A stretch of DNA of 63,440 nucleotides, the filler included, from Vannella sp. (lineage: Eukaryota): the NCBI GenBank assembly GCA_023345925.1. It is 7 parts of 7 records of this genome, joined end to end, with 100 filler letters (N's around TTAATTAATTAA, not from the genome) between each part and the next. Parts side by side here need not be neighbours in the genome. Positions count along the whole stretch, not along the records: positions 1 to 14,500 come from JAJQQN010000685.1; 6 more parts are not named here. The stretch is one strand, 5' to 3'. Made by a program: the position numbers and the translations under genes. The notes below the pieces were generated by a model. It saw only the letters and a program-made list of their open reading frames with translations. It was not told the origin of the DNA and did not search any database. Below, in pieces: positions 1 to 55,083 of this stretch; the stretch's first letter is position 1; every line of letters begins with the position of its first letter.

Positions 1-116
1 AATCTAAACCAACAAAGGACGTAGCCGCACCAGCCAACGAAAGGTCGTGCAAAATAAATTTCTTGGAAAGCCAAAACTCTAGAAATGGAAAGCCAATTTC
101 CTCTCGATTTCTACCG

Positions 117-3100
117 ATGGTGGTGGCGTTGAGGATGTCTTCTCTTTGGCTTTTACTCTGGCTGTTTAGTGGTGCCTTCGCACAATGTGCGGGGCTGCCG
201 TGGAAGGAAAGCTGTATCCTGAAGGAGACAATGGTGACCTATTCTGTTGGCGTCTACGCTGAGGCGTTCACGATGGAGGTGGAAGGATCCGTGCCCCCAG
301 AAACAGAATCAGCGGTTATGATTATCCAGATGCAAGGTGGGAAGTACAACTCGGAGAACTCACGTGCTTTTGGAGGCGCATTTCATGACAGGGAGGGCAA
401 CGGTTACGAGGCGTTGGGCGCTGGTCTCTACGAATTCAGTTATGTTATCAAATCAAGGTTTAATGGCTTGACTACAATCTTCTCCTTACTCTTGCCCGTC
501 ACCAACAGGTACTCCTTCAAAGAAGGGCGTTTCCAAGTCGTGTTCTTCCCCATTTGCACGTTCATGGAGGTGAAGGACTTCATCCCAACACCATGGAATG
601 GAAGGTTTGGCGGAGTACTCCCCATCATCGCCAAAGACATCTCCTTTGCGGCCAACATTTCGATGGACGGTTGCGGCTTCCGCGGAGGCTCCGCGTCCGT
701 TACGGATGGTCTTGAATCAAAGCCTGACGACTTTGCACGACAAGTTTCGACCAAAGGAGGTGGAGATGCCTACAAGGGCGAAGGCTTCCTCGGCTCCCCA
801 GAGATCCCGAATCAATCCACTTCTTCCTATTCTCAACAACTGGACTGCTCCAGAGGGTCCCCAGGTAACGCTGGAGGAGGTGGAATGGCAATATCCTCAG
901 GTGGAGGTGGAGGAGCGAGTGGAGGAAGCGGAGGAGACGGAGGAACATGGCCATTTGAGTCGACGCCACGTTCAGGTGGGATCGGAGGATTTCGAGTGGA
1001 CACTGGTAAAGATAGACTCCTACTTGGTAAGGAAGCTATTCGTTGGGTCTTGAGTGCTTACAACCCACAGGAGGTGGAGGAGGAGCTGGAGCCTGTTACA
1101 ACAAGGTGAGAACTGTGACTCAAGCAGGTGGCAACGGCGGAGGTATCATGTATGTCCACGCATTTGGTTGCATTTCTTTCTTGGATGGAGTGGTTTTGGC
1201 CTCTTCTGGTGAGCCTGGTGGAGATTCCGCTCAGGATTCCGAATGTGGAGGAGGCGGAGGTGAGCCAGCCTGATGAATGAAGATGGTGCTCCTAACAAAC
1301 CTGAGTAGGAGGTGGAGGCGGTACAATCCTTCTGGCTGCTGAATGCAACCTATTGCCCAACCTGACTCTCGTGGCAAGAGGTGGCAAGGGTGGCATTCCG
1401 TCAGTCAAATTCGGTGGAGGCGGAGGCGGAGGAGGAGGCGGAGGATCCCTCATTGGGCCTCCCTTCTTGGAGCGCCTCGTCGACTTTGGACCCAACTATG
1501 ACCCCAATTCCAAGTTACCGCCATCTGACGGTACGTTGCTCGACAAGGTCGATCTTCTTTCCTTGCGCCTCTCCTCCTGTGAAACGACGACGGAATCACT
1601 ATCCCCCTCTCTTTTGGTTTCTCCTTCGGATTCTACTTCGGTTACTCCTTCGGAAACTGTTTTAGTTACTCTTTTGGATTCTACTTCAGTTACTCCATCG
1701 GTTACTCCTTTGGTTACTCATTCAGTTACTCCTTTGGTTACTCATTCGGTTACTGTTTCAGTTACTCCTTTGGTTACTCATTCAGTTACTCCATCAGTTA
1801 CTCCTTTGGTTTCTCCTTCGGATTCTACTTCGATCACTGCTTCGGAAACTCCTTCAGATACTCCTTTGGGAACTGCTCCAGTTACTGCTTTGGTGACTCC
1901 TCCAGTTACTCCTTCGTTTACTCGTTTAGTTTCTCCTTCGGATTCTACTTCGAATACTGCTTCGGGTGCTCCTTCAGTTACTGCTTTGGTGACCACTACT
2001 TCGGATACTCCTTCAGTTACTCCTTTGGATACTCCTTCAGTTACTGCTTTGGTGACCACTACTTCGGATACTCCTTCAGTTACTCCTTTGGATGATCCTT
2101 CAGTTACTCCTTCAGTTACTCCTTTGGATGATCCTTCTGTTACTCCGACTGGATCCGCAGCTGCAAGTGGATCTGTTTCCCATTCTGTTACTGTAATTGA
2201 TTCGATCTCTGAAACATCTTTGGCCATTTCGGGATTCTCGCCGTCAACGATCCGCTCGTCTAATCTCTCCGGGTCCGAAAGTCCCTCCCTCTCTCTTTCT
2301 CCTTCGCAGGAAACCCCTATTCAGCTCAGGCCATTTGGTCCCTTCTCCGGAATAGAGTGCCGAGATTGCGTCGTTCGTGAACAATCATTTCAGCTTGAGT
2401 ATTCGCCCTCAGATCCCAGTCTAATCGAAGTCGTCCTTATCGGGCCGCAAGAAGAGCTATTGGCTGTCATCTACCTTCCGAAAAGTTACAGGAAAAGAAG
2501 AGTAGGACTCCAATTGGCTTTTGGGGACCATTTGCCGACCTTTAGGGGAGATCCTCGCACTCCGACTGATCTTGGTCTCGTTATGTTGGATCTTAACATG
2601 AACGATGCCTCCGGGAATTCAATCAAACAACTTCCAGAACCCATCAACATTTGCCTTCGGGAAATGCGTTCCCTCGAAAGTGTCAGTTTCCTTCTTCCGC
2701 CCTGAAAGTGACTTACCCAACCATAGCATGGATGCCTAAGCTATTACAGCGAACGAAAGGGAGAATGGATTTGCCAGGATCAATGCCTCCATCAGGTCGG
2801 GAAACATCCAGAAATGAAATGCGGCGAAACTGGTGAGATTTGGGTACCTGGGGAAGGGTGAAAAGCGCCTCATCTATTATCTAGACCATTTGACCAGCTT
2901 CGCCTTACTCCTTCAAGGGGGAAACAAGGAGAATGGGGATCCCTGCTCCTCTGTTTCCTCCAACAACACCTTATCGTGGCTTACCCTTGGCTTTGTCGCA
3001 GCTGCCATCTTCGTCGTGTTAATCAGCATTGTTCTAGTTGAAATCTTGTTCCGTTGGAAGATCTCCAAACGAGAGAGAGAGTTCACCAGGATGAGCAAAA

Positions 3101-3132
3101 CTGTTTCTGAGGCAGATCAAGAGGGAAAATGA
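117..3132 (+). CDS. Single-pass surface protein: signal peptide, Gly-rich AgmC-like head, Ser/Thr/Pro mucin stalk, GAIN/GPS-like domain, 1 TM, short cytoplasmic tail
   Basis: GT-AG introns 1027-1070, 1260-1308, 2682-2726 and 2833-2884 join the ORFs in frame; hydrophobic N-terminus; spliced CLSYYSERKGEWICQDQC...CGETDHLTSFALLL; TM WLTLGFVAAAIFVVLISIVLV; stop 3130-3132. Confidence 0.8.
1600..2150 (+). repeat. Coding degenerate tandem repeats (TCAGTTACTCCT-like units encoding SVTP/LVTH), mucin stalk
   Basis: Many 12/24-nt units plus a 60-nt direct duplication near 1971-2030/2031-2090. Confidence 0.85.
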
Positions 3133-3303
3133 GCAGTGTCCGAGGATCTCTTTCCATAACAAGTTAACTTGTGATTCTAAATACCTTGTACCCTCACTCA
3201 GACCCTTACAAAAGTGAAGGGAATCAAAAGTAAGACGTTAGTTTGTTTCGAATGATTATGATGCAAGTGAATGCGATGGATCTTTCCCGTTCCAGCAAAG
3301 GAA

Positions 3304-4222
3304 TTAGAGAGCCCCATCAGTGCGCAAAGGTGGCGAAATTGGTTCCTCAAAGAGAGACGTCTTGCCCCCCACGGGCTCGGCAGCGCGGCGAAGTCCAGTC
3401 TGTGGGCCCGGTTTTGGTCTTTCACCCCTGGAAATAGCCTCAATCACCTGTCGGGCTGTCTCTGGCGTGAGATCTTCCTAACCTACGGTGAGTGTTCTTC
3501 CGACCAAACTCAACCAGTTCCCTTCCTACATAGTAATCGTCGTTGACCGAAATCATTGGCGCATTGACGCACGCACCCAGGCATTCAAGTTCAAGCAAAG
3601 TGAACTTGCCATCGGGGGTGGTTTCTAGATGGGATTGCAGGTTCGAATCAGTTTCTCATCACCAGGAGGATCCCGTTCTTGAGGGCAAAGCTTACCTCCA
3701 AAGTGGATGCCTCCGAGCTGTTCAGAGACTGCCTTGTAGATCGACTCTGACTGGCATAGCATGCAAGGGGTCGTCATGCACACACCAACAACGTGTTTCC
3801 CCACAGGTTCGCGAAGGAACATCGAATAGAAGGTGGCTGTCTCGTACACTCTCATTTGAGGAACATCGAGTAACTTGGCAACCTTATTCATGGCTGCCAG
3901 AGGGAGCCATCCGTGTTGCTGTTGAGCAAGTTGCAACAAGGGGATGGTAGCCGCAGCCTTGTACTGCGAAGGGTATCGCCCCATGATCGCCTTCACCTCC
4001 TTCAAATTGTCCATTGTGAACTCAAATGGAGTACTCTCGTTGTTCTCGGGAGTGTATATGTGCTACGCGGATTGATCAACGGTGAGCTTCGACCATTGCT
4101 GTTTCCCTTCTTCTCACCTTCCTGATGCCAACACCCCCACCACCCAACCTGGGCGACGAAGAAAACGTTCGAGAGAAAGCAACAGTGCGAGAACAGACAG
4201 AAGAGCACGCTGGACGGAACAT
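3304..4222 (-). CDS. NDUFV2: NADH:ubiquinone oxidoreductase 24 kDa subunit
   Basis: Mitochondrial presequence MFRPACSS...; [34 protein letters not shown] and spliced [10 protein letters not shown] [2Fe-2S] ligands; 3 introns. Confidence 0.95.
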
Positions 4223-4327
4223 GGAGCCTTGCGGCAGTGCCTGAAGGAATAAGCGAGAACTCGCAGTTCCGAACAGCCAATGACTCCCCTTCAAAGACTA
4301 AATAGAGATTTTTTGACTTTAATATTT

Positions 4328-5023
4328 CTATTGGGTCAATTCCATGATAGCCCCAACCATGTCACCACCACACTTCTTGAGGGCTTCAATGGCTTGCTCG
4401 CGCGTGGCCTTAGTTTGGTCCATGATCGTGGTAATGTCAGCTTCGGAAGCCTCACCGTCAGCTGGTACATCAGCGGCACTGATCTCGTTGGCATCAACTA
4501 TTCAATTCGAGAGAATGAGTAGCCGTTTCTACAGAGGAAAGTTGGCAACGTACCTTCCTCCAATTGGGGAACGTCATCCTCATCAACATCCTGAGCGAGG
4601 GATGCAGCTGCCCGTTGAAGACCTTGTTGTTGGAAGTCCTCAATCTTGGCCTTCGAAAACAGTCAGTCGCCGTAAATCCTGGGATAATAAAGTATCACTA
4701 ACCTCTCCAAAGAGCACATAGGTATCAGTAGAGGGGCTCTTGTAGACGTCGGGCTTGGAGATGATGAACAGAACCTAGAAACCCAACTTAGAAATGGTGA
4801 AGCTTTTTTGTGAATCTCTTACGTTCTTGGACTTCTTGATGGCAGCACGAGTGATTCCGGGGACTGGACGGAGGCCCAGCTTGGAGAGCTGCTTGCGAGC
4901 CTTCTTTTCGCTCTTGCTTTGTTTATTGGCCTTGTCCTCCAAGATGCCTTCAGTGGTATCCTCGGTGGTGGCGTCCTCGATCCGAACCTCTTCGGTTACT
5001 TCGGTAATCTGTTCTTCGGCCAT
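4328..5023 (-). CDS. NACA: Nascent polypeptide-associated complex alpha subunit
   Basis: [46 protein letters not shown] and C-terminal UBA-like ...[11 protein letters not shown]; spliced. Confidence 0.93.
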
Positions 5024-5248
5024 GGCAAGCTTGCTTGGTGCGATCAAAAAGACCCAAACCGCCTCTGGCCGAAAATTTTCGTCAAAGCCCTCGGCAGGCT
5101 TGATTGAGGAGGACCCCTAATCAATTTATTCGTGCTATAGATTCTAACAATTTCAATCGGGAGTTCTTTCAGAGGGGAGGAAGCAATTTGGGATGGTTGT
5201 TTCGAGGAATCAGTCTTCTCTTCTCCCCAACGAACAACCACTCTGCCA

Positions 5249-7029
5249 ATGAACAACACCGTTCGCCCTCTTCGCGCGCTGATCCTTACTTCCGCAAGAT
5301 TGCGTTCAGTTGGGAATGATCGTAGACTTGCTTCATCTTTCTGCGTCTCCGGTTAGCGCTTGCAAACTTTCAGTCGCCTGTTGACTAACCGATCCTCAAA
5401 GGAGGACCGCTTTCATCTCGGATTCAATCAGATCAACGATTGAACTGCTCATCTTTCTCCTCTAGAGCATTTGCTTCTTCTGGTAAGTCCTCCGTGGTGA
5501 TCACGATCTTGGAGAGCCAAACTAAGCTCTCTTCCTCTTCCTCTCTTCCTCTCATATACTTATCATTGGAAATACAGCTGAGAAAGACTTCTACGAGGTA
5601 CTGGGAGTGTCCCGGGATGCCACGGAGAAGGACATTAAGAAGGCTTTCCGAAACGTAATATGAACCCTTCTTGGCTTCCAGGAGTTTCTCACTTCAACAA
5701 ACAGTTAGCAAAGGAGTACCATCCCGATCGGAACCCAGGCGACAAAGAGAAGGAGAAAATGTTCAAAACCTTCTCCGCTGCCTACGATGTCCTTTCGGAC
5801 CCGGAAAAGAAAAAGCAGTATGATATGATGGGCCACAAGGCATTTAGCGAGGGATACTCTGCTCAGAGTGCCCCTGACTTTGAGGACATCTTAAGCCAGT
5901 TCGGGTTTGGAGGAGGCGGTGGAGGAGGTTTTGGTGGTTTCGAAGACATCTTCTCAGGTTCCTTTGGAGGGGGACGCTCAAGGCAAACCTCCAGGGGTAA
6001 ACAGGGAGCGAATCTCGAGGTGGGTGAATCTCAACACACTCAAAAAGAACGGCTCTGACTGTTCTATGGAATCCAGATGACCCAAACCATCAGCTTCATG
6101 GACTCGATCAAAGGAGTCAAGAAGGAAGTCTCTTATTCCACCAAGGTTGGGTGCGAACCATGCAAGGGGTTTGGTACAAAGGATGGAAAGAAACCTCCCA
6201 CTTGTTCGACTTGCGGTGGGTCAGGAACTGTAAGTGGTCAACAACACCCCAGTGGATTATTGTTATCTTGCTGACCTAAAAATGTTCCTTTAGGTGACAA
6301 GCTCCCAAGGAGGCCTCTTTTTTGTCCAGCAGGCGTGTAGCGCTTGCAGAGGATCGGGAGAGAAGGTCACTGACAGTTGCTCATCTTGTGGAGGAAGAGG
6401 AACGATAGGCAAACTTGCCAATTTAGAAGTTTCCCTGCCAGCTGGTAAGATCCTCTCTCACATTCACCAACAACATCTGACATCCTGCAACCAGGTATCA
6501 GCGATGGGGATACTGTCCGAGTTCCCAGGAAGGGATGTGCAGGAGAAAAGGGTGGCCCAGCAGGTGACCTATTTATCACGGTCAAGGTGAGTCCTCATTC
6601 AGATTGACGTTTGAGATGGAAGAATCATCTGATCTTCTGGTCACAGGTCCAACCACACTCGTACTTTAAGAGGAACAACAACGACATTCATCTCGAAGTC
6701 CCTCTATCTCTCACTCAAGCTATCTTCGGGACTTCTGTTAAAGTACCAACTGTCGAGGGAAAGGTACTCGAGGTTACCGTACGTTAAGAGATGGAGATGA
6801 GTACTTTGCTCACAAATGGAGGCAGATCAAACCAGGGACTCAATCAGGCGACCAAAGCATCCTCCGAGGCAAAGGAGTATCAAGAAAGGGGCGCTTTGAT
6901 GTTGGCAATCAGATCTTGACTCTGAAAGTGCATATCCCCTCTGCGACGGTGTTGCCAGATGCCCAAAAAGAGCTCTTCCAGAAGATTCAGGAAGGGGAGT
7001 CCATCCCAAACCCCTTCCAGTTGGAGTAA
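5249..7029 (+). CDS. Mitochondrial class A DnaJ/Hsp40 (Mdj1/DNAJA3-like)
   Basis: Arg/Ser-rich presequence, J domain with HPD, G/F region, four CxxCxGxG motifs, C-terminal domain; multiple short introns; TAA 7027-7029. Confidence 0.9.
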
Positions 7030-7216
7030 GAGGTTCTTCCTGCCATAAACCCTCTCTCTTGAAGTAGAAGAAGGTCCACCAAGGTTACTGGGTGGGAAAG
7101 AACGCTCCCAATTGCGCACCAAGTACAAAACCCGTGTATTGAGCGAAGTTTGTGGAGTCACTGGAAGAAAACCACTCTCTTGACCACATTGAATCCACAA
7201 AAGGAAAAAAAGGAAC

Positions 7217-8030
7217 TCAATACTCCAGGATGGGTCCGGCACTGGAATCCACGTTCTTGTCAAGAGTACAATTCAGCTCAAACACTTTGCTCAGGCAGAT
7301 CTTGAAGATGTTCTGGATGTTGATGGGGCCTGAGGCGGAGCAATACACTAAAGGTGCCTTCATTGCGCGAGCGAACTTCCGCGCCTGTATTTGTAAGAAG
7401 GGAACTTATCTCACCGTGCTGATACTCACTGAAAGGGTGGTCTCTGCCTTGACCTCGGGTTCTAGTTGCTCAAAAAGATCATATTTTGTTCCTATGAGGA
7501 TCGCCTTGGCGGTCTGGCTCATTGTCAGATCTCTGAGATACGTTGATCTTCTGTGAGATGGATAAGAAGTGATGCTTCCTTACCTTGTTGATGGCACGGG
7601 CTTGGCGATACCAGTCCTTGACAGACACCAAGGTGGCGCTGCGTGTCAAATCAAACATGAAGAGGATGGCCAGTGCATCGTTGCAGACGAGAGGGAGCAT
7701 ATTCAAGAACTCCTTTTGACCTCCCAAGTCCCAGATGGAGAAGGTAATCTCAGTCCCCTTCACAGAGACGGTCTTGTCCATGAAGTTGACACCTTTAGCA
7801 CCCCCCGCATTAGTTCTATGACAAAGGAGTTCCTCCGAGTGGTTCAAAAGGAATCAATAGTCGACAGACGTACCCAGTGTTTGGATGTAATCCTCATCAA
7901 AGGAACCATCCACATACTTGACCATGAGGCTGGTCTTACCCACTTGAGAGTCTCCCACCATCCCCACCTTCACAGTGACCTGCTTGGCACTTCCTTTTGC
8001 AGAACCAGACTTTGCATACTCCTTGGACAT
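7217..8030 (-). CDS. SPG1: Spg1/Tem1 small GTPase (septation initiation/mitotic exit)
   Basis: [54 protein letters not shown]-terminal GPILEY; spliced. Confidence 0.92.
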
Positions 8031-8206
8031 GCCGACGCAGCGAAGGGCGGCGAGGAAGAGAAGTGCCAACACCGGCCAATTAGAAGCGCTTTTGGACCTT
8101 CTTGAATTGCTTCTGAATTGGAGATGCTGTCCAATGGGTCCATCCAAGGAGGAGGGAACTGCAACTCAGAGGTTTATCAAAGGATCGTTCCTCTCGAAGA
8201 GGGAGC

Positions 8207-9635
8207 TTAGAAGGCGAACAGAATGCAGCAGAGAAGAAGAGCAGCTGCGAAGGATTGGGTAGTGGCACTGTTGCCTTCTCCGAAGGGGTTGGGAGTGCTG
8301 GTGGGTGAGGGAACGGGACAATCCGCGAAAGAAAAGTCGTTGTTGATGGAGATGGGAGGAGAAGGAATCACAAAGCTGTCAGCGACAACTCCGATCACAC
8401 AAGTAGCATAGCGGCTTCCGCTGTTCCCCGCTTGGTCACAGTTGATCCCATCGCCATGATCGAACGTGGCGTGGACCACCATTCCATGGCCAGCCAAAGA
8501 GGACAGTGAAGGAATCAGCTCATTGTCAAGCTGATACCAAGCCACACCATCACGATCGTAGGTCTGAATGTCGCCAAGGTCGCCCGCGTGTCTGTTGCGA
8601 GATGGAGGGAGACCGTGAGTCTTTCCTTCTGGGTTCCAGTGCGATCCGAGAGTGACTCCAGAGTCTCTATCAGAGATATCTCCGTATTGGTGGATGTGGA
8701 TACCATGGATGGAGTCTTTCACCAGGCCTCGAACCTGCCCGACGACGCGAATGAGGTTTCCTTCTCCCTTCTCAAAGTAGACGGTTCCTTCACACTCAGG
8801 GCAGTTGCTCGTCCCTTCCAGCGTGCAAGCAAGCTTTGTGACATCACCATCTTGAGAAGCCTTGTTGTTGGGGTCCTGTGCAAGTCCAATGACGCCAAAC
8901 CCAATCCGGGCACCAGTGTTCGACTAAACGAAGAGGGTGAGCCACAATGGGCCACGCTACTATCTAAGAAGCACGCACGCCATCACAAGGATCCTTAATG
9001 TTGTGAAGAATGATGCCACGGCCCAGGACGGACGTGTTGCCCGAGAGGGTGATGAGGTCGAGCGTCTTCTCTTCAGAGATAATGCCGTTGGTCACACTCC
9101 AGGAGCCCTGTAGCTGGGTTAGACTCTAATGAAAGAGAGCAAAGGGTTCTTCTGACCATATCGCCCTCGTGGCGCTCCTTCGAAGGGGGGCAGCCGTGAG
9201 AAGTCGAACCTGCTCCGACCCAGTGGGGTCCTTGGGATGATCCAGTGGCATTGGTGAGATCTCCATACTAAGAGAAGAGTGAGTGGAACGTCTACGTAGG
9301 ATGGGAGTAGCAGACAGTGTGGAGGTGAAGGCCCAATTTGGAGGGGAGGTCAGCACCGAGACCAGAGATTCGCACTTGCACAACCACCTTTCCCCCCTGT
9401 TACATACAGCCCAACACATCATATGTCATATCCCACTCACTCCGTTGGAAGACTCTGTAAAGGTCACAGTCCCGCTCAACGAGCTTTTAGCATTCGAGGT
9501 GGCTTGAAGATAAGCAATAGCAGACCCTGCCCAAGCCCTATCAGTCACAGGCCATCCCCAGATGCCTATAGACGTACGCTGCGCTGCTACACAATGGAGA
9601 AGCCCAACAAGAAGGGCAAACAGAAGGAGTTTCAT
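8207..9635 (-). CDS. Secreted, probably GPI-anchored protein with two tandem Cu/Zn superoxide dismutase domains
   Basis: Signal MKLLLFALLVGLLHCVAA; domain 1 (spliced) HLH/GPHW/SHG/RHEGD/ILH/GAR; domain 2 HIH/GSHW/THG/RHAGD/VVH/GSR; hydrophobic C-terminus after NSA. Confidence 0.88.
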
Positions 9636-9766
9636 CTGAGACAGTCCCTTCAAGCAGGGCTAAGCGAAATGAAGCCATTGGATGGTCGAAAGGAAAGTTT
9701 GCGACCTACCGATGAAAGAGGAGGGAAAGGGATCATCGAAAAAGGCTCATTTGGGGTCACTTTGTC

Positions 9767-11438
9767 ATGCAGCCTTATGGCTCCGCGGGGGAGTACTGGA
9801 ACAACGATAGTCCCGTTGAGTACCATTCGGGGGGATACTCTAACCACTCAAGGCAAATCAGCGCTTACCCACCGGTATCCACAGTGCTACGACCCGACCA
9901 GCACTCGGAACGCGATCCGCCTCCTTCGTTGGCTTGGCACGGCTTGAATCTCTCAGGGCACCAGCTTCGCACCTTATCACCCGCTCTGGGACAGTTCAGT
10001 CACATTACCGAGTTGTATCTACTCAACAACCAGCTACGGGAGCTCCCCAAAGCGCTCTTTACGGGGTTGCTCAACTTGACCCGTTTAGACGTGTCCCAGA
10101 ACCAGTTGGTCGTCCTCCCCGTTGAGATAGAGAACCTCCAACGACTGAAACACCTCCTCCTCGAAAAGAACTGCCTCACCTCCCTACCAATGGAGTTGGG
10201 AAGATTATGGCGGTACGCGATGGCTCCTTCCTCCTTCCCTTTTCGCTAAGCCCCGTGGGTTGGGTAGACTGGAAGAACTAGGACTAGAAGGGAACAACCT
10301 CAGCTCTCCCCCTCAAAGCATTCTAGCTATTGGTGCACGGAACATCGTCCGTTACCTTCGGGACCGAGTCAGTGAAGTTCAGGCCCCCCTGGAGCGGAAG
10401 TGGGAAAGGGCAACAAGAGAGACGACCCCCACTTCATATCCTTTCAAGATCATGACGTACAACATCCTCGCAGAGACCTACGCCACTGAGGACCAACATC
10501 CCTACACACCGACTCACTTCCGCAAGTGGGAGTACCGCCGTGAGAAGATCCTGGAAGAGATCCTTACTGCAGATGCGGACATCATCTGTCTGCAAGAGGT
10601 GGAGGACCTCCAATTCAGAGAGTTCTTTGTCCCGCGATTGCGAGCGCGCGGCTACGAGGGACAGCACAAGCTCAAGACACGTGCCAAGAACGTGGCTCAC
10701 TCAGACGCAGTAGACGGGTGTGCGACCTTCTATCGGAGGGAGAAGTTCCAGAAAGAAGCGAGCTTCGAGGTGGAGTACCAAACCTTGGCCATCGAGATCA
10801 TCCCCACTGGACCCGGCCTGGACCGCACGATTCGTCGCGATAACATTGCCCTCCTACTGGTTCTGCAAATGCATTCCAACGGAGGAAGCACCAAGGGCCG
10901 AGGACCCAGGGCCACAAAGCGAATCCTCGTTTGTAACACACACATTCACTGGGCCCCTGCAGAGGCTGACGTGAAGCTGATGCAAGTCCAACTCCTTCTA
11001 AGGGAAGTACAGAAGGTCTGTCGCCAGTTTGAGGACCCGCACATGCCCCTTCTGATCACAGGAGACTTCAACTCGGAGCCATCAAACGCAGTCTACCAAC
11101 TCTTGAAGAACGGGCGGGTGGGAAAAGAGCATGCGGATTGGAACAGCGATGTCAACTACGGTGTATTCTCCGCTGAAGGATGCTCGCATCCATTCCACTT
11201 GCGCGACTGTTTTGATGGCATTTGCGAGCCGACATTCTCCAACTTCAACGGAGACTTTATGGCCATTTTGGATTACATTTGGTACAGTAGTGACTCGATC
11301 ACCTGCTTGGGAACAGCAGCGACACCAACAAAGCAAGAGATTGCCCTCCAAAAGTCGCCCTTGCCCAACAGTCACTACCCCTCGGACCACATCTTCCTCC
11401 TTGCCGAGATGGAACTGCAGTCAAAGCGGCGCACTTAG
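9767..11438 (+). CDS. CNOT6: CCR4/CNOT6 deadenylase (LRR + EEP nuclease)
   Basis: LRRs (LYLLNNQLRELP), MTYNILA, ICLQEVE, GDFNS, LDYIWY, PSDH; intron ~10213-10267. Confidence 0.93.
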
Positions 11439-11574
11439 TCGAACAGTTGGCCTCCTTCCGAATAAAACCAAGTCATCAAGACACTCCACGGGAAAGGCCC
11501 CTGAAGATGAATTGGCCTCCTTGACGCCATACAGAGACCACTTGGGGGTTGTAAAAGGGCTGTTTAGAAGTCAC

Positions 11575-12702
11575 TCAGAGGGCAGACGCCAGCCAGTCCA
11601 ATCCTCGGCACACATCCGTCACGTTTGCAACGCACATGATTCGCCAAGCGCGTTGTTTCTCTTGTAAAGCATCCTTTCCTTCTAATAGGAGAGTTTGCGC
11701 CAGTTCGCAGGGTAAGCGGGTCTTCAGAAGGAGGGGATCCTCCCTTTGGTCTTCGCCCATTTCCTCCTCTTCGCTCTGGAGGCCAACAGTGCAGCAGAGA
11801 ATCAAGACAGGTGTTCCTGGGTTACATTGGCGGGCTTCTATAAGCTCTTGACTTGCCCTGGCTAAGCGCACATCGCTAATGAGGGCATCAATCACGTAAA
11901 CAAGAGCGTGGGCTGTCTCAAAGAACACTCTTCCATGGCGCAAAGGCTCTTCTCGATAGAAGGCAGCCAAGTTAAAGCGCTTCCTATTCACAGTGAATCC
12001 CACGCCAGAGCCCACGCCTCCAAGACCGGGATAGAGCCCCGTCACAAAAAGGGGAGACTCTTGGGACCACATCAGCTGATAGAGGAGGCCACTTGCGGAC
12101 GAGTTCAAGCCTTGCCCGAAGATAGGAATGCAGAAGATAGGTTCTCCGTTCCTGTCATGAGTCCGGCTCCGGCGCTGAACAGAGCGGGACAGACCAAAGG
12201 GAAGGCGGAAACGGCTTCTTGCGGAGGGTTCGGAGGTCATTCTAGTGAGCGCCCGAGAGGGGCTCATAAAGCACTTTCCATTGGCCAGATGCTGTAGCAA
12301 GTAGCGTTCCCTCCAGTTGGCTAACTGATCACACCGCGCGGCTTGACCTTGATGGTGGGTGTGGAGGCGGAGAACCACTCGCGGGTCGACAGAGTACACT
12401 TGCCATGAGGCTTGGTCTTCTTGGAAGCGGCGATGCCAGCTCTGCTCGTCCTGCGCCAACCGTCGCCACTCTCGACAAACGGAAGGGAGGATCGTCGCCA
12501 AGTCTTCGGCGGGAAGCCATGAGAAGATCAGGAGCTTCAGCTCATACGGAAGTGTATGAAACAAAGGGCACGGCTTGGTCTTCAGCAATCCCATACGAAC
12601 CTGCGACAGAGGTGCAGCAGTCAGACGGTCCTCCCTCGCATCCACTTGGTCAATCCAATCGTCCAAAGCATTCACCAACGAAGCTTCACTCCACCACGCC
12701 AT
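11575..12702 (-). CDS. FBXO4: FBXO4-like F-box protein with C-terminal small-GTPase-like fold
   Basis: F-box LPYELKLLIFSWLPAEDL...VCREW; FGQGL, GVGSGVGF, PVLILCC, LPCELAQTL and GLDWL resemble motifs of vertebrate FBXO4. Confidence 0.75.
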   Translation of the reverse strand: MAWWSEASLVNALDDWIDQVDAREDRLTAAPLSQVRMGLLKTKPCPLFHTLPYELKLLIFSWLPAEDLATILPSVCREWRRLAQDEQSWHRRFQEDQASWQVYSVDPRVVLRLHTHHQGQAARCDQLANWRERYLLQHLANGKCFMSPSRALTRMTSEPSARSRFRLPFGLSRSVQRRSRTHDRNGEPIFCIPIFGQGLNSSASGLLYQLMWSQESPLFVTGLYPGLGGVGSGVGFTVNRKRFNLAAFYREEPLRHGRVFFETAHALVYVIDALISDVRLARASQELIEARQCNPGTPVLILCCTVGLQSEEEEMGEDQREDPLLLKTRLPCELAQTLLLEGKDALQEKQRAWRIMCVANVTDVCRGLDWLASAL

Positions 12703-12940
12703 CCAATAGAAGACCTTTCAATGCCCTCCTCCTCTCCACAACGAAAGCTCCCTCCACAAAGGCTGACTCAGCACTGCTGACGCCAGCAAGAGCGCGTAAG
12801 CATGGAGGAAGGGCCGAGGGGAAATGAGGCCAAAATGGGCAATCACCAGTCAGGTTCGTAAAGGAAAGCGTTGGTTGGTGTGGGTAAAGCGAAAGGAAAG
12901 GAAATGACCGGACGGGGCCATTTATTGGGCCATTCGGTTG

Positions 12941-14371
12941 ATGTCCGCTTCGGAGGCGGAGGACGCGAGGAAGCCCAGGAAACACGCGAAGCGGAAAGAC
13001 TCCAAATACTACGCCTCACTGCCGGGTGGACTCCCGTCTTCTTTGACGCCTCCTCCGACTTTGCAGGTGCCTCAGGACACCAGCGAGGACGCTGCGGTTG
13101 AAGTCTCGGTGGAGAAGAAGAAGAAGAAGCCCTCGCGGAGCGACTCTGTCAGCTCGACACGCAAATCCCGACACACGATATGCTTGGATGGTCCTCTCGA
13201 TTGGCAGAGCTCACCCTCCACAAGGCGCCGTGCTGAGTCTCTCAGCTCTGGTACTAGCGACACAGAGGGAGATGCAAGCGAGAGTGAAGAGTCCTCTGGG
13301 GGTGGCACTAGAAGTGGAAGGGTGGCTCGCCGTAAGAAGGGAAACACGAGCAGTCTCCTCAGCACGGTTGTGACGGTCGGCTCCTCAGGCTCTGCGGGTA
13401 TGATCCCAAGTAACGGCTCTCCTTCAATACTGACATCAATGGACGGGCTAGTCGAACGGAGTGACAATGAAATGCAAGTGATGGTTGGGGTGCGCCTCAG
13501 TGGAAGCTCGTACGAGCTCACCAGTTCTCCTTCTCGCGATGAACTGAAGCGAGGAGAGAGAGTGCGTCAGAGATCCTCTGTCAACCTATCCAAGTGGCTC
13601 CTGGGCAAGGGGAAGGCAAAAAAGTGTGCCACTGGAGTGTTTGGAGCGTGCATCGCTGACCTGGTGTCTGAACCGAGTGGGAATGAGATTCCCATCATCA
13701 TTCGTCAGTGTGTGGACTACCTAGTGACCCGTGATGGTAAGAAAGCGTTCGTTTGTGGGTTCATCCGCCTCATTCTCTTCAGCCCACCTGCTGGAAGGGA
13801 TCTTTCGCAAGTCTGGACGAACAGAAGTGATCGATCGACTCAAAAGCCTCTATGACTCTCCTTCAGGTGAGCCCTTCCGTCTCCTGGAAGAGAAAATGCT
13901 CACCCAGCCCAGCGGAGCCCGACCTGGACACCTGCACAGACCCCCATTGCGTCGCCAGCTTGCTGAAAACCTTTCTGGGAGCCATGTCAGAGCCGGTCAT
14001 CCCCTTCTCCGAGTACGAACGGGTCATTCAGAACTTCAGTGAGTCCCCATCCCCTCTCTCTGACACTTTCAGTGCCCTGACAAGGAGCAGACCACTTCAA
14101 AGAGACGAATGAAAAGAGTGGCGTCGTGCGAAACCTTGTGAGCACGCTGCCAGCCCCCAATCGCAGCGTGCTCCAGTACATGATGCGCTTCTTAGTGCGC
14201 GTGAGCAATAACAGCGACCTCAACTTGATGAGCAGCAAGAACCTCGGCGTTGTCTTTGGCCCCAACTTACTGCGGCCCCTCGAACACACCCCCGCCACCC
14301 TCATGGACCTCACAAACACTCAAATCATCGCCCACATGATCGATCATTCCTCTTCCGTCTTCCAGCGCTGA
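12941..14371 (+). CDS. RhoGAP domain protein with Ser-rich N-terminus
   Basis: IPIIIRQCVDYL, EGIFRKSG (arginine finger), VASLLKTFL, NLMSSKNLGVVFGPNLL; spliced. Confidence 0.9.
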
Positions 14372-14500
14372 GATGGAGAGAAGGACGGAGAAGGGAGTCT
14401 CGCCATCTCCCAACATCCCTCTGGGTTGCACTTAAAATGTATTTTATTACCAAACGGTCATCGCCACTATCATCACCATCATCATCATTATCGTGGCATT

Positions 14501-14600
14501 NNNNNNNNNNNNNNNNNNNNNNNNNNNNNNNNNNNNNNNNNNNNTTAATTAATTAANNNNNNNNNNNNNNNNNNNNNNNNNNNNNNNNNNNNNNNNNNNN
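14501..14600. other. Artificial contig spacer
   Basis: N44-TTAATTAATTAA-N44 (stops in all six frames). Confidence 0.99.
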
Positions 14601-17530: not shown

Positions 17531-20418
17531 TTATTGGTTAGCCCGCTTCGCCACTTCCAACAATTGAGAGACTCGGTCGTCGCGACGCTCTTTGTGCCTG
17601 GTTGCTTGTTCCTTTTTTCGGAGGCGTTGTTCGATTATCAGCGCCCCTCCAAAGAATACAATCAAGAGGAGGATGATGGTAACGGCGACAGGGAAATGGA
17701 CATACCAAGGAGGGGAGATTCGCTTGGTCAAGTCGTCACTTCCACAAGAACCGAGGAGAATGGCAAAGTTGACTCCTCCATAACTCGCTCCTGGTTTGCA
17801 AGAGCGGTCGTACGATGCCACAGACTTGGCATTGCGAATGGGGCATTCGTCTTTGCAGTTGAACAGTACTTCTTCAAAGCGACCCAAACGCTTGGTCTGA
17901 GAGAGAATCAGCTCAAATCGGTCTCCTTCCTCGAAATTTCCATCGGGATTGAGGCAAACGCAAGCTCGACCTCCTTCGAGATTGACGTCGTCCCCTGCTG
18001 AGATGAAAGTGAGCGCGTTCGGGTCGGTTTGGTTGCGGGATTGAATGTTGAAGATCATTGTGCCAATGCTTCTGAATTGGCCTGAAACATGCAAACGAGT
18101 GGGCTGGTTCTCTCCGAAGCCCTGAATGGTGGCCTCTTTGCCATTGAGTAGATTTCCTTGGATGGAGCCAGTTCCTGCCAGAGAACCCTCACTGACCAAT
18201 GAGCTTCCGTTCATTAGGATGTGAGATTGCTCCAAAGCGATGGACCCATTAGGAGTGGTAAGTGCGCGGTTGATAGTAACGTTGGTAGAGTACAGCTGCA
18301 GCTTCCCGCTGTGCTCCAAATAGTCCAAACAAGCAATCAGGGTCTGGAAGCGTGCAGTTCGGCCCAGGGTCAAGATGCCCTGATTTTCAAAAGCCTGGCT
18401 GTCGGTGGAGCCGCAGTTCACCTTAAAGTCATGATCTGCCTCCATCACTCCCAAGTTTGTCAGAGATGCTCCAGCAGGGGCTCTGATACGGCCTGGGGCA
18501 ACCAATCGGCCCTTATTTAGGAATACAGATGTCTGGTCAACATCGATTGCAGAGAGAGCATCCATCTGTACTTGGCCAGTGATCAAAAATGAGGATTCTT
18601 CCCGCAACGCCAACCGAGCACTTCCTGTAAGGGTGAAATTAGCCTCAACTAGAGCATTAGAGGATCGCATGATCAATTGAACATTCTCTTGTAGCTTCAT
18701 GTTCCCTCCAGAACCAGAACCAGCCGAGATTAAAAGCTCTGAGTCAATCAGAGACAGTGAATTGAGGAAAGGAGTTGGATTAAAGGCGATAAAATCGCCC
18801 CCTGAAACGACCAATCGAGATCCCTGCATTACAAAGGTACTTTGGTCAGTGACACGAAGATCTCCTTGCTTCATTAGCACAGATGTGCGGTCAAAGGAGA
18901 GTTTTGATGAGTCTCCAGCTTGCAAAGAGCCTCCATCGATCTCCAGATTACTCTGTTTGATGGAAACCCTGGATCTGTCTTTGATGCTAAAATCCCCAGC
19001 AGTAATCGAAACACTGGAAGACTCAAAAAGGGCGTCTGATGATCCAGAGCAGCCGAGATGCCCTGAAACTTTGATCTCCGCACCTCGGAACACACCAGAA
19101 GCTTGTTTCTCAAAATTCATATCTCCCTGAACATTTACCTTGGTGGAAGTCAAGGTGACTTGCGACTCATCGTTGAAATTGATACTTCCTGCTTCGATTA
19201 GAAGTTCTCCTTCAGCAATCTGTGCCTCGCTTTGGTCCGAGAAGTGGAGGTCTCCACCAGAAACCAAAATTTGTGATTCATCGAAATTGGCAATGGAGGC
19301 TCCTTTGGTGGTCAAGTCTCCTTTGAGAATGAGAAGTTTTGACTGGGTACAGACCAGGAGCGCATTACCAGAGAATTCTACGGAACCTCCATTCACAGAG
19401 AATTGGGACTGGTCGATAGTGGAAGTCACTTGACCGGAGAAGGTTGCATTTCCACTGAACACTTCGATGTTTCCTTCATTGCGCAAAACCAAGCGGGTGG
19501 AATTGAGTGCTGTAAAAGACCCACCATCAACAATCACTCTTGAGGCATCAACAACGAGATTGGAACCATCTTGAGCAAACAGTGAGCCGCTGGTAATTCT
19601 AAGTGAGCTCTGACCACCGAGTACAACGTTACTATGGTCAGATAACACAGCATTCCCGCCAGATATATTCCAGCAAGATGTTGACAGCGAGATGACGCTA
19701 ATTCCACCGTAGTTGACAGACCCTTGCTTCAACTCAAAGCAAGATTCATCAGTCAAGGAAAGATTTGAGATGCCAGCCGCATCAATTGAACCACCAGTAA
19801 CCTTGTAATTGGAGCCTTGTGAAAGGGATACAGAACTACTTCCTCCTAAAAAGAGGTTTCCTCCGGAGACACTGAACACAGAATCTTGAATGTCGACGCT
19901 AGAGGACCCTTCGTAAGAGGTTTGACCCCCAGTAATAGAGTACGAAGATGACTGGATGTCCATCTCCAAAAGCCCGACGAAAGGAATGATCCGCTTTGGA
20001 TGGTGATGTCGGAAGAGCGAATGCGAATTGAAGTGTTTTCAGTTACTCCCAAAGTTCCTGAGCCAGAAAGGATTATTGAAGAATATTGGAATAAATTGGA
20101 GGAAGCAGAACCAAATTGAATGTTTCCATCACCAGACACGCTTAGACTTGAACGCAGCCAAGTTGCCTCTCCCCCAAAGAAACGGGCGTTTCCTCTTGTG
20201 ACAAAAGCTGAGGATTCTTCAATTATGAATGAACCCTGACTGATGACGGAAAGATCTCCTCCCTCCACATGGATTGCGTCCTTGTCATTGAAGGTAGTAA
20301 CGCTCTGTCCGGAAATTGTGAGCGAACCAGACTTAATACTCACTGCAGAGCGGGTAAATTGGTGGGAAGAAGTATCACCAAAGTTCAAATTTCCACCTTC
20401 AACAGTGATGCTCGAGTC
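17531..20418 (-). CDS. Large beta-helix (22-23 aa repeat) single-pass surface protein, 5'-truncated, with a 1-nt frameshift at 19968-19971
   Basis: Regular VxGGx(L/F) repeats; autotransporter-like GSLAGTGSIQGNL and GDRFELI...GRFEEV; TM VAVTIILLLIVFFGGALII; two ORFs in different frames. Confidence 0.8.
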
Positions 20419-20518
20419 NNNNNNNNNNNNNNNNNNNNNNNNNNNNNNNNNNNNNNNNNNNNTTAATTAATTAANNNNNNNNNNNNNNNNNNNNNNNNNN
20501 NNNNNNNNNNNNNNNNNN
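20419..20518. other. Artificial contig spacer
   Basis: N44-TTAATTAATTAA-N44. Confidence 0.99.
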
Positions 20519-27167: not shown

Positions 27168-27267
27168 NNNNNNNNNNNNNNNNNNNNNNNNNNNNNNNNN
27201 NNNNNNNNNNNTTAATTAATTAANNNNNNNNNNNNNNNNNNNNNNNNNNNNNNNNNNNNNNNNNNNN
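27168..27267. other. Artificial contig spacer
   Basis: N44-TTAATTAATTAA-N44. Confidence 0.99.
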
Positions 27268-27471: not shown

Positions 27472-30400
27472 CTAAACACCTGTGGCAGGAGTGTGCATGG
27501 GAGGGGCACGACCAGTAATACTTTGGTGTCCTGCTTCGGGATTGTTCATCAAATCGACTGCTCCAAACAAGTTGGCGATTGTCCGACGTAGTCCCCGCCT
27601 CTCCGACTGCAGAGAGGCTTGTTCTGAGCTCGAAGAACGGGCTACGACCGGGCTTGTAGAATCGTTGTTCTGTCGAGCAACCACAACTGCCGCAACCACA
27701 ACAGCAGCAACAATAACACCAGTAACCCCGAGAATAAGGACGCCGCCACCAACTGATCCAACCACGATTCCAGCGATAGATCCTCCGCTCAAACCGCCTC
27801 CACCGCCACCACCTCCTGCGGCTCCTGCAGAAATGGATCCTCCAACGCTACCTGCATCGATGACACCAGGAGCGGTCAGAATGGAAGAGGGAAGACCTGC
27901 TGCGAGTGCTCCTTGGCTTCCAGCAACTACTCCAGTGGAAGTAATACCAAGCGCAACACCTTCTGGACCGGCTGCTGCGCTTGCAAATGCCTCCGCAATG
28001 GTCTCTACCGGAACGCCGAACGATTGAACAACGAATGAGAATCCACTAACAAGACCCTTTGCGTGAATGGCGCCCTTACAATTGGCATCCTGCTGCGAAG
28101 GACGCACTTGGACGGCAGTTGTGGCGGGATTGGCCTTTGTCAAGGAGTAGAACAAAGCTTTCCAATCCGCGTCATTGATGCACACACTCAAGGTGACACT
28201 GAGAGTAGTAGAAGTGGCCAACTTCAGATTGGTAATGACTGACGTTGGGCTTGAAGAGAAGAAAAAGGACATACTTCCCAATGATGGATAGAGATTTCCA
28301 CTGATGTGGGATGAATACTCAGAAATGCTGTTGCTGCTGTTCAGTTTCAGACCTAAGAGGATTCTTTCGTTGCTGTCATCCCATCCCATTGTGGTGGTGA
28401 CTTCCAATCCTCCTGCAGAAGGGAACGAGATGGTCCCAAGATCGTTACAAAGGAGAGTGCCTTGACTGACCAAGCAAGAACGGAGAGTCGCGCTAGCACC
28501 ATTAATGTTAGTGAGACGCCATTCTAGACGGTCATTAACACGCGAGGAACCAGCTTGTCCAGTGCGGCACGCAAAAGCAACGGTTCCGGAAGAGACTTTG
28601 AGGTTGAAGCTCTGTGAAGTGGTGTACTTGTTGACTACGAGGGCTGATTTATCCCAGCGAACCAGAAAGTCTCCATTCTGAACAATGGACAGAGACTGCC
28701 CACTGACAACGTATCCAATGGGTGAGACAGGAGAGAGCTGGCTGAAGTCTAAAGCGTAGTTAGGGATTCCAGATGTCCCGTTGGTGACGCATTGTCCGTT
28801 GTAAAGCAGGGTTCCAAGGGGGCATGAGCACTTGTTAGCAGAGCAGACTTTACCAGAGCTACAAGTGCCACAATTGACAATGATTCCACACAAGGCAGCG
28901 TTCCCGCAGTCAAATCCATTCGTGATGCATTGCTGCGGAGCGTTACATTGCATTGAAGACGAAGGTGAAGGTGCCACTGGAGACTTCGAGGCTGAAGCAA
29001 TCGAACTGGCCGATGCAATACTTGACGGAGACGCTACCTGCGATGCCACCTGGGATGTTGGTGTGATGAGCGGATCGTCGCCTTGAATGAGAGGTTCGTA
29101 GACCACATTAGGTACACGACTTTTAGATCTCGTGGGTGACTGAGAACCGTTTGGCGGAGATGACAAAGAGATCGAGCGGGATGGGGACGCGGCTGGCGAG
29201 GCACTGACGACAGAAGAAGCTGACGGCGCCCCAGATTTGGAAGGGGAACTAGAAGGGCTATTGGCAGGAGTACTTGTGGCGGTCGGAGTGGAGGGAGGTG
29301 CAGCAATAGGGATACATTGGGACTGAATGTTGCAAACCTCAGCACTGGTACATGTACCACAAACTCCACCACACCCATTGGGACCACACTTCCGATTACC
29401 ACAGGCAGGGGTGCATGTGAAAGGGCCAGTCATTTTCAAGTTGGTGACGATTGTCCCTCGGGCATTGGCCTTTCCACCAACGATAATGGTGTAAATGGAT
29501 CCTGTGACGACATTGAAAGTGACAGCAGAGGTTTTGACCGAGGCAGAGACGTCATCATTGAAGCCGCTCGGAGCACAGAGGTTCTTTGTTCCGGTGCAAT
29601 CAGTCGAGCTCAAAACACTCAGGATTGTGTCCACTGAGCTTCCTTCTGTCGTCAATTTGGCTGTCCCTGTTGCGCTTGCCTTAAAGTAGTACCAAAGTCC
29701 TCCTGGGGTCTTCTGAGCCGGATCTTTGCCACGGTCAGTATCACAGAATGGGCGAGAGTACGCACTTACCGCATGAGAATGGGTTGTTGACGACACCATT
29801 GTTGTCCTTGGATACGGTGTAGCCAGCAGTTGATTGTGTGAGACCCTCAGCAGATGGACAATCGGTGTTCTGAGGGATTGTAGATCGGCAAACACCGTCA
29901 CCACCACATACAGCGAGCGTAGCACATGCTCCACAAGTTCCTCCGCAACCATCTGGTCCACAGGTCTTGCCAAAGCAGTCATACGAGGTACAAGAAGATG
30001 CCAGAGCTGGACTGGTTCCCAGAGAGTATCGAGAACTACTGGGGTTGAGCAAGAATCCACGCATGAGAGAGGCCTGTTGCTTAGTGAAGTATTGTCTACA
30101 CTGTGGGCGGTTGTAATCCATCAGATTGCGGACCATAACAGGGTTTCCACAGCGAACAAAGGCTGTGGGACTGTCTTGAATGTTACAGGGGTCAGCAAGA
30201 GTGACCCATTTGGAGCCAGCTGAGTCTGTGCTAGGTGTGTCAGCAATACCATCACCCAAACTGCACGAATCTCCTTGAAAAGTGTGGAGCAGCCCAAGCC
30301 AATGGCCAGACTCGTGCGCCAAAGTGTTTCCAGAGTAAAGGGAATCGCCCAAGATAGAGTAGTCCATCACACAGCCGTCGGTGTCATAAGGGCCAGAGCT

Positions 30401-30991
30401 AGGAGAGTAGGCAAAGCCTGCAGCATTGGAGATCTTGCAAGTGTACACGTTGTAGTACTTGCTTGAATCCCAGATGTCTGCTCCTCCTTGAGACGTGAAG
30501 AAGTTGGCAGTTTCTCCAATAGAGCAGGACTCTGCTAAAGCACTGGTAACGTAACGCACGCCGTCAAAGGGATTGCCGAGAGGATCCTTTGTGGCCAGCT
30601 CGAAGCGGATTTTGAGATCGTCCGTGCCAGCAACAACGGAAGAGAACATGTCAGACTTGTTGTAGTACTTGTTCTTGCCAGCGAACCAGTCATTGAGCCA
30701 GCCCATCTCCGTAACGATCTTGTCTCGGCTCACGTAGTTGGTGGGACTGTTGGTGAGAACATGCCAGACGACAGGGATGCGCAAGACCGTGTTGGCTCTC
30801 GCAAACAGGTGCTCGTTCGACGTTATCTCTTCAGCAAGACGCTCGATAGAAGCAGAATGCTCGAGAAACCAAGGTGTCTTCCTGAGACCATCAAATCCGC
30901 ATGAGTCCGGGGAGTGGGAAGGATGGAGCTCCTTCTCGTGACACTCAGAGAACACCACAAAGAGAAACAAGAGGGATACCAGAGCTTGCAT
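27472..30991 (-). CDS. Membrane-anchored M43 (pappalysin/ulilysin-like) metzincin with Cys-rich repeats, beta-sandwich domain, Ser/Pro stalk and 1 TM
   Basis: Signal MQALVSLLFLFVVFSEC; propeptide CG; IPVVWHV; HESGHWLGLLH; Met-turn NLMDY; intron 29724-29769 joins the two long ORFs; TM IAGIVVGSVGGGVLILGV... Confidence 0.88.
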
Positions 30992-31951
30992 CTGCAGAAG
31001 AGGGAGAAAAGTAAACAGAATCCTAAAAATCGAGATTCCCTTTCCCGCAAACGGCAGGTTCAAGGAATTTTCCGGACGCTGGCAAGTCACGTGATCTGTA
31101 TCTTGCTGCAGCGGGTGGACAGATCCCAAAGCCTGGCCCCAGAGAGAGTAGGTCCACCTAATGGAGTGAGGGTGCATGCAAATGTTGTTCAGGAGCCCTC
31201 CCCACCTAGAATGAGTTGTTTCCGATGGTCAGTGAGTGTCCGAGGAATGTGTACCTGTTTTGGCTCTCATTCCTTATCGCAAACACTCCTTCATTGTTAA
31301 CAACATGCCCAAGCCTTTGGAGACACAGGTAGACTCAGTCTTAGCTTGCTGAGGGAAGCCTATTCTGCTCGCGAAGGGGAAATGGTCGCCTACAACCTTA
31401 AGGCTCGCAGCTTGGAAGAGCCATAATATAGTGGAGGAAAGCAGAGCCTCTCGCTAGCCTCTCAGGCTGCCAAAAATGCCCAAAGCCAACCCAAACCTTC
31501 ACAGAGGACAAATCCTCCTTCTCGCAGAACCACTGGAGGTTATCGTTATCTCGTCTGCCTGAGCCCTTGCTCGCACTCCCAGGACTTACTGCGATCATCT
31601 CCACCCAAAGCTGAAGGTGTATCTGCAAGCCACAAGGAGTGCTAGTCAGACGAATGGTCGTTGGTTGGAGCCAGTACGGAAGATGTGAAACGTGGATCGG
31701 TCTCCTCCTTCTTTGAACTGCGAGATGTCCTCCTTCTCAGAGTCGGCGCCAGGCGACCACTTTCGCAACGACCTTCAAAAAAGGCCCCAAACTCGATGGC
31801 GAGTGGTTGGAATCGTATTTATATATGTTTTTAGGTTTTCACTTTCTGTGTCCAACTGCGCGATCGAGTGTCTTCAATCACCCGCACCCCCTTCAACTCT
31901 TTTTGTGTCCACAGAAAAGGAAAATTCTCCATTTTGTTGGATTATTTAGGG

Positions 31952-38322: not shown

Positions 38323-38422
38323 NNNNNNNNNNNNNNNNNNNNNNNNNNNNNNNNNNNNNNNNNNNNTTAATTAATTAANNNNNNNNNNNNNNNNNNNNNN
38401 NNNNNNNNNNNNNNNNNNNNNN
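38323..38422. other. Artificial contig spacer
   Basis: N44-TTAATTAATTAA-N44. Confidence 0.99.
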
Positions 38423-43191: not shown

Positions 43192-43291
43192 NNNNNNNNN
43201 NNNNNNNNNNNNNNNNNNNNNNNNNNNNNNNNNNNTTAATTAATTAANNNNNNNNNNNNNNNNNNNNNNNNNNNNNNNNNNNNNNNNNNNN
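43192..43291. other. Artificial contig spacer
   Basis: N44-TTAATTAATTAA-N44. Confidence 0.99.
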
Positions 43292-54806: not shown

Positions 54807-54906
54807 NNNNNNNNNNNNNNNNNNNNNNNNNNNNNNNNNNNNNNNNNNNNTTAATTAATTAANNNNNNNNNNNNNNNNNNNNNNNNNNNNNNNNNNNNNN
54901 NNNNNN
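54807..54906. other. Artificial contig spacer
   Basis: N44-TTAATTAATTAA-N44. Confidence 0.99.
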
Positions 54907-55083
54907 ACAGAGATCGTCTTCTGAAGGTCTCGTCCAGTAATTAAATGAAAACATCAATAATTATGATTTTGATCAGAATGGGATTCTTGCCACGCTATCA
55001 TAATCGCGTGATAATGGGGAATGTGCGGGTTGTCCTCCGCTTTCATTGTTCGTTCTCGTCCTTGATCGGGTTGTGGAGTGAGG

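Follow-up and report, generated by a model that had tools for sequence, protein, structure and literature searches.

The locus at the start of the analyzed window (a 63,440-nucleotide stretch of Vannella sp. DNA) raises the question of whether an autoproteolysis site of the GPS type can stand directly in front of a single transmembrane helix, and what such a joint would be for in a protein that is devoid of a multi-pass unit.

Gene structure and genomic context

The gene lies on the first of the joined contigs (1-14500) and consists of five exons on the + strand, running from the ATG at 117 to the stop codon at 3130-3132, with the spliced model providing an open frame of 941 aa. The predicted protein comprises, in order, a signal peptide, an AgmC-N-like head, a Ser/Thr/Pro stalk, a compact GAIN-B domain, the HL↓T site (the arrow marking the bond), one helix and a 26-aa tail (Table 1). 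The initial annotation had arrived at the site only after removing two introns, 2682-2726 and 2833-2884, and both predicted introns are well supported: their boundaries are GT-AG; three natural proteins recovered with the last exon alone as query (P0001-3) align co-linearly through the two junctions at 39-48% identity; and the pair comes out on top of 495 open splice models of at least 200 aa (124.4 bits with the P0001-3 profile vs 117.6 for the next). The intron immediately 5' of the His codon is found at an identical position and phase in the genomic loci L062 and L084. Introns this short, with GT-AG ends, suggest a microbial eukaryote. Contigs from a single RNA run (share 0.05) match the neighboring genes at 3839-4034 and 6006-6283, and not the exons in 2560-3132.

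On the spliced protein, the predicted HL↓T site falls at His861-Leu862↓Thr863 (codons 2887-2895), followed, as had also been proposed, by one helix, a short tail and a stop, with a tail of 26 aa where about 28 aa had been given. The expected absence of further transmembrane exons is likewise upheld: no 19-residue window in the + strand frames of 3040-4330 has a hydropathy above 1.4, and the next gene is on the opposite strand. This organization departs from that of the adhesion GPCRs, in which seven helices follow the GPS, and from that of the PKD1/REJ proteins, as the upstream exon frames matched no Pfam family, including no REJ domain, and the 26-aa tail leaves room for neither a PLAT domain nor further helices downstream. 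The six frames of the whole window held no second copy of the motif with the same context.

The window itself is a composite of seven contigs joined by artificial N-padded linkers (14501-14600, 20419-20518, 27168-27267, 38323-38422, 43192-43291 and 54807-54906), and neighborhood across these linkers is therefore meaningless. Other genes in it include a predicted Cu/Zn superoxide dismutase (8207-8923, - strand) with a Ser/Thr/Pro spacer and a hydrophobic C-terminus, resembling a GPI-anchored surface enzyme; two single-pass surface proteins without a Pfam match (17531-20038 and 27472-30120, both - strand), one repetitive and beta-helix-like and the other bearing a Ser/Pro stalk; a frame for an M43 peptidase at 29741-31228; and a single open frame (55066-58452, + strand) in which a fatty acyl-CoA reductase (NAD_binding_4, Sterile) is fused to a glycerol-phosphate-type acyltransferase.

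Table 1. Features of the predicted surface protein gene, in window coordinates.
Feature	Position	Strand	Basis
Predicted signal peptide, aa 1-22	117..182	+	hydrophobic N-terminus in model, by inspection
Gly-rich head, homologous to N-terminal domain of myxobacterial AgmC, exons 1-3	183..1484	+	NF047640 match
Intron 1, GT-AG, 44 nt	1027..1070	+	AgmC-N profile co-linear across junction
Intron 2, GT-AG, 49 nt	1260..1308	+	AgmC-N profile match on either side
Ser/Thr/Pro-rich mucin-like stalk, aa ~455-705, 56% S/T/P	1572..2324	+	composition
Minimal GAIN, aa 714-870: one CxxC helix and subdomain-B-like beta-sandwich, two introns inside	2349..2916	+	P0047 model
Intron 3, GT-AG, 45 nt	2682..2726	+	homologue alignment, splice-model score
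Cys844, N-terminal to the site, with Cys880 as predicted partner	2784..2786	+	family co-occurrence
Intron 4, GT-AG, 52 nt	2833..2884	+	splice-model score; position and phase shared with L062, L084
Putative autoproteolysis site His861-Leu862↓Thr863 and last strand, tethered-agonist-like	2887..2913	+	His, Thr in 103/103
Cys880, C-terminal to the site, in the membrane-bound piece	2944..2946	+	family co-occurrence, spacing
Single transmembrane helix, conserved Glu912 at inner end	2977..3051	+	Glu in 95/103 rows
Basic cytoplasmic tail, 26 aa, and stop codon	3052..3132	+	gene model

The head and the stalk

What the head shares with the N-terminal domain of AgmC is a co-linear match that covers 77-391 of the 412 profile positions, made up of three exon pieces matching NF047640 at 77-283 (E 1.9e-18), 294-349 and 348-391. 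What sets it apart are its scores (66.7, 20.9 and 9.5 bits, with the exon pieces scanned apart), which are far under the cut-off of 275 bits, its two introns, and its fusion to a eukaryotic-type stalk and anchor. All 30 of its Atlas look-alikes are without a Pfam family, the three rows shown being bacterial, and when 151 genomes were sampled from the phylum to which a Myxococcales MAG belongs, three had a relative at approximately 33% identity. A tblastn search of the head against L102-L104 gave no alignment among the matches listed, though the genome search had scored those loci; a full-text literature search found no paper on AgmC. Together, the AgmC-N-like match and the stretch with 56% S/T/P are consistent with the earlier description of an adhesin-like head on a mucin-like stalk. 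A binding function for this head is assumed from its position in the protein.

A minimal GAIN-B-like domain

Evidence for the fold comes from the homologue P0047, which is 37.5% identical to the window model over 216 aa and was modeled with AlphaFold using an alignment of 103 rows, all shorter non-repeat members of the family. The model (mean pLDDT 80; mostly >84 within the domain) has a single helix (residues 60-68) ahead of the first strand, preceded by a low-confidence stalk and followed by a sandwich closing with the post-site strand and by one long helix. The structural ranking (VIA) has four GAIN chains on top (Z 11.5, 10.9, 10.7 and 10.5), among them CELSR1 (Z 11.5, rmsd 3.2, 147 aligned), CD97 (Z 10.9) and BAI3 (Z 10.5), with the ankyrin-B ZU5 domain at Z 10.0; the top 16 rows are GAIN, ZU5 or FIIND chains and three unnamed axonemal chains. 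Foldseek likewise matches the model to CD97 (E 2.2e-6). This model replaced an earlier one with three alignment rows and a pLDDT of 63, for which the CD97 GAIN (Z 7.4) and the ankyrin ZU5 (Z 7.3) were about equal. Since the best structural matches of P0047 are GAIN chains, the domain appears to belong, as a GAIN-B-like form, to the ZU5/GAIN superfamily, with which it shares the sandwich and, as in the wider ZU5/GAIN/Nup98 assemblage, the H-x-[ST] motif before the last strand. Its subdomain A, which has 2-6 helices in GAIN domains, is reduced to one in the model, and its sandwich has about 9-11 strands as against 13-14.

Sequence searches gave a fainter picture. Pfam GPS (PF01825, cut-off 22.5 bits) matched neither the exon frames nor P0001-3, and reached only 4 of 42 relatives weakly, the best (22.4 bits) being under the cut-off. 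A three-sequence profile found no GAIN among the PDB sequences. The exon-3 piece, which is without the GPS motif, gave no match in a word-seeded search; its best Atlas family match is a GPS cluster (score 0.84), which serves as a lead only. Weak sequence links to adhesion GPCRs are seen with ADGRG3 (E 0.0012) and cod ADGRG4 (E 6.5e-6). The beta-sandwich predicted by the initial annotation is thus recovered on homologue models, and the name GAIN fits as regards this B-like sandwich and the intact site; the domain is nevertheless not canonical, in light of its one-helix subdomain A, the absence of the canonical Cys pairs, its failure to reach Pfam GPS and its closest sequence relatives being bacterial ZU5-type repeats. 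The window protein also has a furin-type tetrabasic site, RKRR (aa 761-764, window 2490-2501, + strand), within a domain loop; this site is not conserved across the family and could be a second cut.

A family of single-pass proteins with a shared anchor

The family was collected with a three-sequence profile from among 1.84 billion representatives, giving 728 clusters at E<=0.001 (384 at 1e-10), the best 150 of which were analyzed. Among these 150, a single hydrophobic segment follows the site in 129, no member has two or more, and 21 lack any, namely 18 repeat-type proteins, two ending early and one in which the pattern picked a wrong motif; the H-[LF]-T motif was picked in 149, and the median tail is 21 aa. 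The absence of a multi-pass unit, as claimed at the outset for the window protein, thus extends to the best 150 of the 728 clusters. A metagenome scan added 70 loci with 43 distinct C-terminal readings, most of them ending in one helix and a stop, and no relative with the pattern used was seen in viral contigs. Two intron-bearing loci and one record from a eukaryote transcriptome set suggest that the single-pass members are eukaryotic.

Long members present a head, stalk, domain, helix and short tail in that order. Their heads differ, with CUB, Calx-beta, FG-GAP and tail-collar domains in 4 of the 24 single-pass members scanned and most being without a Pfam match, such that the domain-helix-tail unit behaves as a shared anchor carrying unrelated heads.

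In the 103-row alignment, the His, Thr, Phe and Leu of the site are unchanged in all rows while the adjacent positions vary, and His, Thr, Phe, four Cys and one Gly are listed as invariant; this conservation is somewhat inflated because the site was part of the collecting profile and the rows stem from the best 150 of 728 clusters. The helix has an acidic residue at its end in 119 of 121 scorable single-pass members. A second helix/tail class (L027, L031, L040, L042, L050, L053, L063 and L067-L070) is without the Glu and has a YG-x-EG-x-R-like motif after the helix, which suggests two different intracellular partners.

Rewired cysteines and a predicted disulfide across the site

The canonical GAIN Cys wiring is absent in this family, since the position two before the site His is Thr or Ser in 103/103 rows and the Cys is found five before it; by comparison, latrophilin-1 is reported to have the disulfides C801-C832 and C820-C834 around His836 (PMC3321182). 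Instead, the presence/absence pattern of the cysteines suggests three pairs, 815-856, 827-840 and 844-880, with Cys827 and Cys840 being jointly lost in five rows where 815 and 856 remain. The third of these pairs spans the site. Of 181 domain copies found, two were unscorable; in the other 179, the Cys before and the Cys after the site are both present in 163 and both missing in 12, with the later alone kept in three and the earlier alone in one. Where both are present, the His-to-Cys distance is 15-21 in 158 of 163 copies, and the linker is 32% Gly with a narrow length range. Joint retention and loss of this kind predict, from sequence, a disulfide between Cys844 and Cys880 that would join the two products of cleavage.

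The phylogenetic strength of this pattern was gauged on a separate set of 186 rows. On inspection of nearest neighbors, the 12 double losses fall in about 10 groups, seven with a nearest neighbor that keeps both Cys, and on the best tree the losses of the two Cys need 12 and 11 changes. A tree-based independent-pairs test on the two Cys was underpowered, with only two pairs on well-supported branches (p 0.5), and Fisher p-values for their co-occurrence take no account of kinship among the copies.

Bacterial ZU5-type relatives

The 18 helix-less repeat-type proteins each have 2-5 scored copies in tandem, and many of these proteins start with a signal-like or lipoprotein-like segment. Pfam ZU5 (PF00791) matches 16 of these 18, 12 of them at or above the cut-off, as opposed to none of the 24 scanned single-pass members. 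Scanning of species genomes yielded 22 loci, and most of the strongest come from MAGs with Myxococcota groups in their titles; the myxobacterial loci have bacterial neighbor genes, such as a sigma-54 activator, and the domain is patchy in the Myxococcota (5 of 401 genomes, one being the center of the search). In a FastTree phylogeny (198 rows, 138 columns, with a long-branch outgroup, and silent on which way any transfer went), 70 bacterial or repeat-type rows are united in one branch with a support of 98, while two Sandaracinaceae copies from one long contig (L009:4812-5783 and L012:4902-5342) are placed among the single-pass rows (support 91, unstarred). A Deltaproteobacteria MAG also codes for a protein (L005:2214-5411) that has numerous teneurin-like EGF repeats and a single, terminal copy of the domain.

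Discussion

We posit, with slightly better than even confidence, that the gene product, a surface protein with one membrane pass and likely an adhesin, probably undergoes self-cleavage at His861-Leu862↓Thr863 in its membrane-proximal mini-GAIN, and that the predicted Cys844-Cys880 disulfide would keep it joined to its stub, so that the head and stalk would be shed only after reduction. Here, self-cleavage would accompany folding in the ER, on the model of adhesion GPCRs; the cut domain would be held whole by its last strand together with the predicted disulfide; the AgmC-N-like head on its O-glycosylated stalk would mediate adhesion; and reduction combined with a pull would release both, with the outer part being freed only once the bond is reduced. 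The Glu-bearing helix and the basic tail, in turn, might bind a conserved partner. A point against cleavage in this account is that deletion of subdomain A is reported to abolish it in latrophilin-1 (PMC3321182), and here only one helix of that subdomain is left.

The same point favors a reading in which there is no cleavage, with the domain being a stable structural foot between stalk and membrane and the H-x-T motif being kept for folding. The single-helix subdomain A of the model would fit this, as would the lack of the canonical disulfides described as holding the kink in latrophilin-1 (PMC3321182) and the account of canonical Unc5 ZU5 domains that do not self-cleave (PMC10084454). However, His and Thr are invariant while the residues adjacent to them vary, GAINs with 2-3 helices are reported to cleave still (PMC13197933), and the Unc5CL ZU5 domain is described as cleaving without a subdomain A (PMC10084454); we regard this reading as unlikely. 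The initial annotation had instead suggested a force-release or shedding anchor. In the plain force-release form, the domain would be cleaved with its halves held by the last strand only, and a pull would shed the head as in the MUC1 SEA domain or the GAIN of adhesion GPCRs, with Cys844 and Cys880 pairing otherwise or not at all. In its favor, a stalk, a juxtamembrane autoproteolytic domain and one helix make up the layout reported for MUC1 and RsgI (PMC10327162). Plain force release is doubtful, as the co-loss of the two Cys predicts a disulfide joining both products. Both are kept in 163 of the 179 copies and in the window protein, and where they are lost they mostly go together, at scattered points of the tree; against this, the 12 copies that lack both keep the site, and that subset could work by force alone, and the independent-pairs test was not significant. 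We consider this reading, too, to be improbable for the window protein.

A further alternative would make the protein the sensing half of a split receptor, with the last strand or the Glu-bearing helix signaling through a separate multi-pass partner or intramembrane proteolysis, in the manner of Cirl-1TM with Cirl-7TM, which it is reported to bind (bioRxiv 2023.01.11.521585). The last strand does fit the published tethered-agonist consensus TxFAVLM (PMC12716839), and the near-constant acidic residue at the helix end is in keeping with this reading. Yet the last strand is also conserved in the bacterial repeats that have no membrane helix, on account of which it is more readily seen as being kept for the fold, and a disulfide lock would hinder its exposure. 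This seems to us the least likely of the alternatives, and quite improbable.

The single helix after a GPS is itself already published: the sea urchin SpREJ1, 8 and 9 are described as having a GPS followed by one predicted helix (PMC1934368), and Drosophila Cirl-1TM a GPS followed by one helix (bioRxiv 2023.01.11.521585; PMC13197933). Hence, the observation of a GAIN/GPS without a multi-pass unit stands for this protein and is not a first. The former are PKD1-family REJ proteins and the latter is a splice form of a 7TM gene, whereas the window family is single-pass as a rule, with no REJ domain matched. Both Dictyostelium and Tetrahymena have also been recorded as having GAIN (PMC3321182), and non-holozoans are reported to have it in genes other than 7TM ones (PMC12716839). 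The novelty lies in the family, in how its cysteines are rewired and in the counterparts it has in bacteria; our full-text literature search found no paper describing this family, the repeats in myxobacteria or a disulfide across the site of a GAIN. With the GAIN domains of adhesion GPCRs (CELSR1, CD97/ADGRE5, BAI3, ADGRG3) the window family shares the subdomain-B sandwich (Z 10.5-11.5), the H-L↓T/S site, the hydrophobic last strand and the place just before the first helix. It differs from them in having one helix instead of seven, a one-helix subdomain A, and Cys at His-5, Thr at His-2 and an extra Cys after the site, where they have Cys at His-4 and His-2.

Disulfide-linked halves as such have precedents, being retained in other self-cleaving families such as RGM and the GDPH mucins. 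Extracellular ZU5-like domains, too, were reportedly noted in the single-pass FAM171 proteins by Liao and coworkers in 2014. The MUC1 SEA and bacterial RsgI SEAL domains are functional analogues with a long disordered stalk, a juxtamembrane self-cleaving domain and one helix (PMC10327162), which differ in their unrelated fold and in having halves that are held non-covalently. Homology between ZU5, GPS and Nup98 has been published (PMC3482391), and ZU5 domains of bacterial surface proteins are documented (PMC3482391, PMC10084454). The ZU5 superfamily, including these bacterial versions, appears to be of the same fold class in the structural models; the single-pass members are set apart from it by being extracellular and Cys-rich, and by a site that in nearly all copies reads HLT/HFT instead of HFS.

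Taken at its widest, and only as a tentative possibility that we would rate below even chance, this might be a widespread, undescribed family of protist adhesins in which a minimal GAIN-B, self-cut and then disulfide-locked, acts as a redox-gated breakaway joint, with the same cysteine-wired domain (ZU5-type in front, GPS-type at the back) forming the tandem secreted repeats of a few myxobacteria, and thus a living ZU5-GAIN intermediate exchanged between myxobacteria and protists. The reason for GAIN self-cleavage is still described as open (PMC13197933). With a domain of about 150 residues that has neither a subdomain A nor a 7TM unit, the family lets cleavage be studied alone, and its natural variants include some that have the predicted cross-site disulfide and some that lack it. 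The myxobacterial repeats provide a sequence-level bridge between ZU5 and GPS, along with a GAIN-like domain that has no membrane helix after it. Should the lock prove real, it would be a mode of shedding control that has no description for GAIN in the literature searched.
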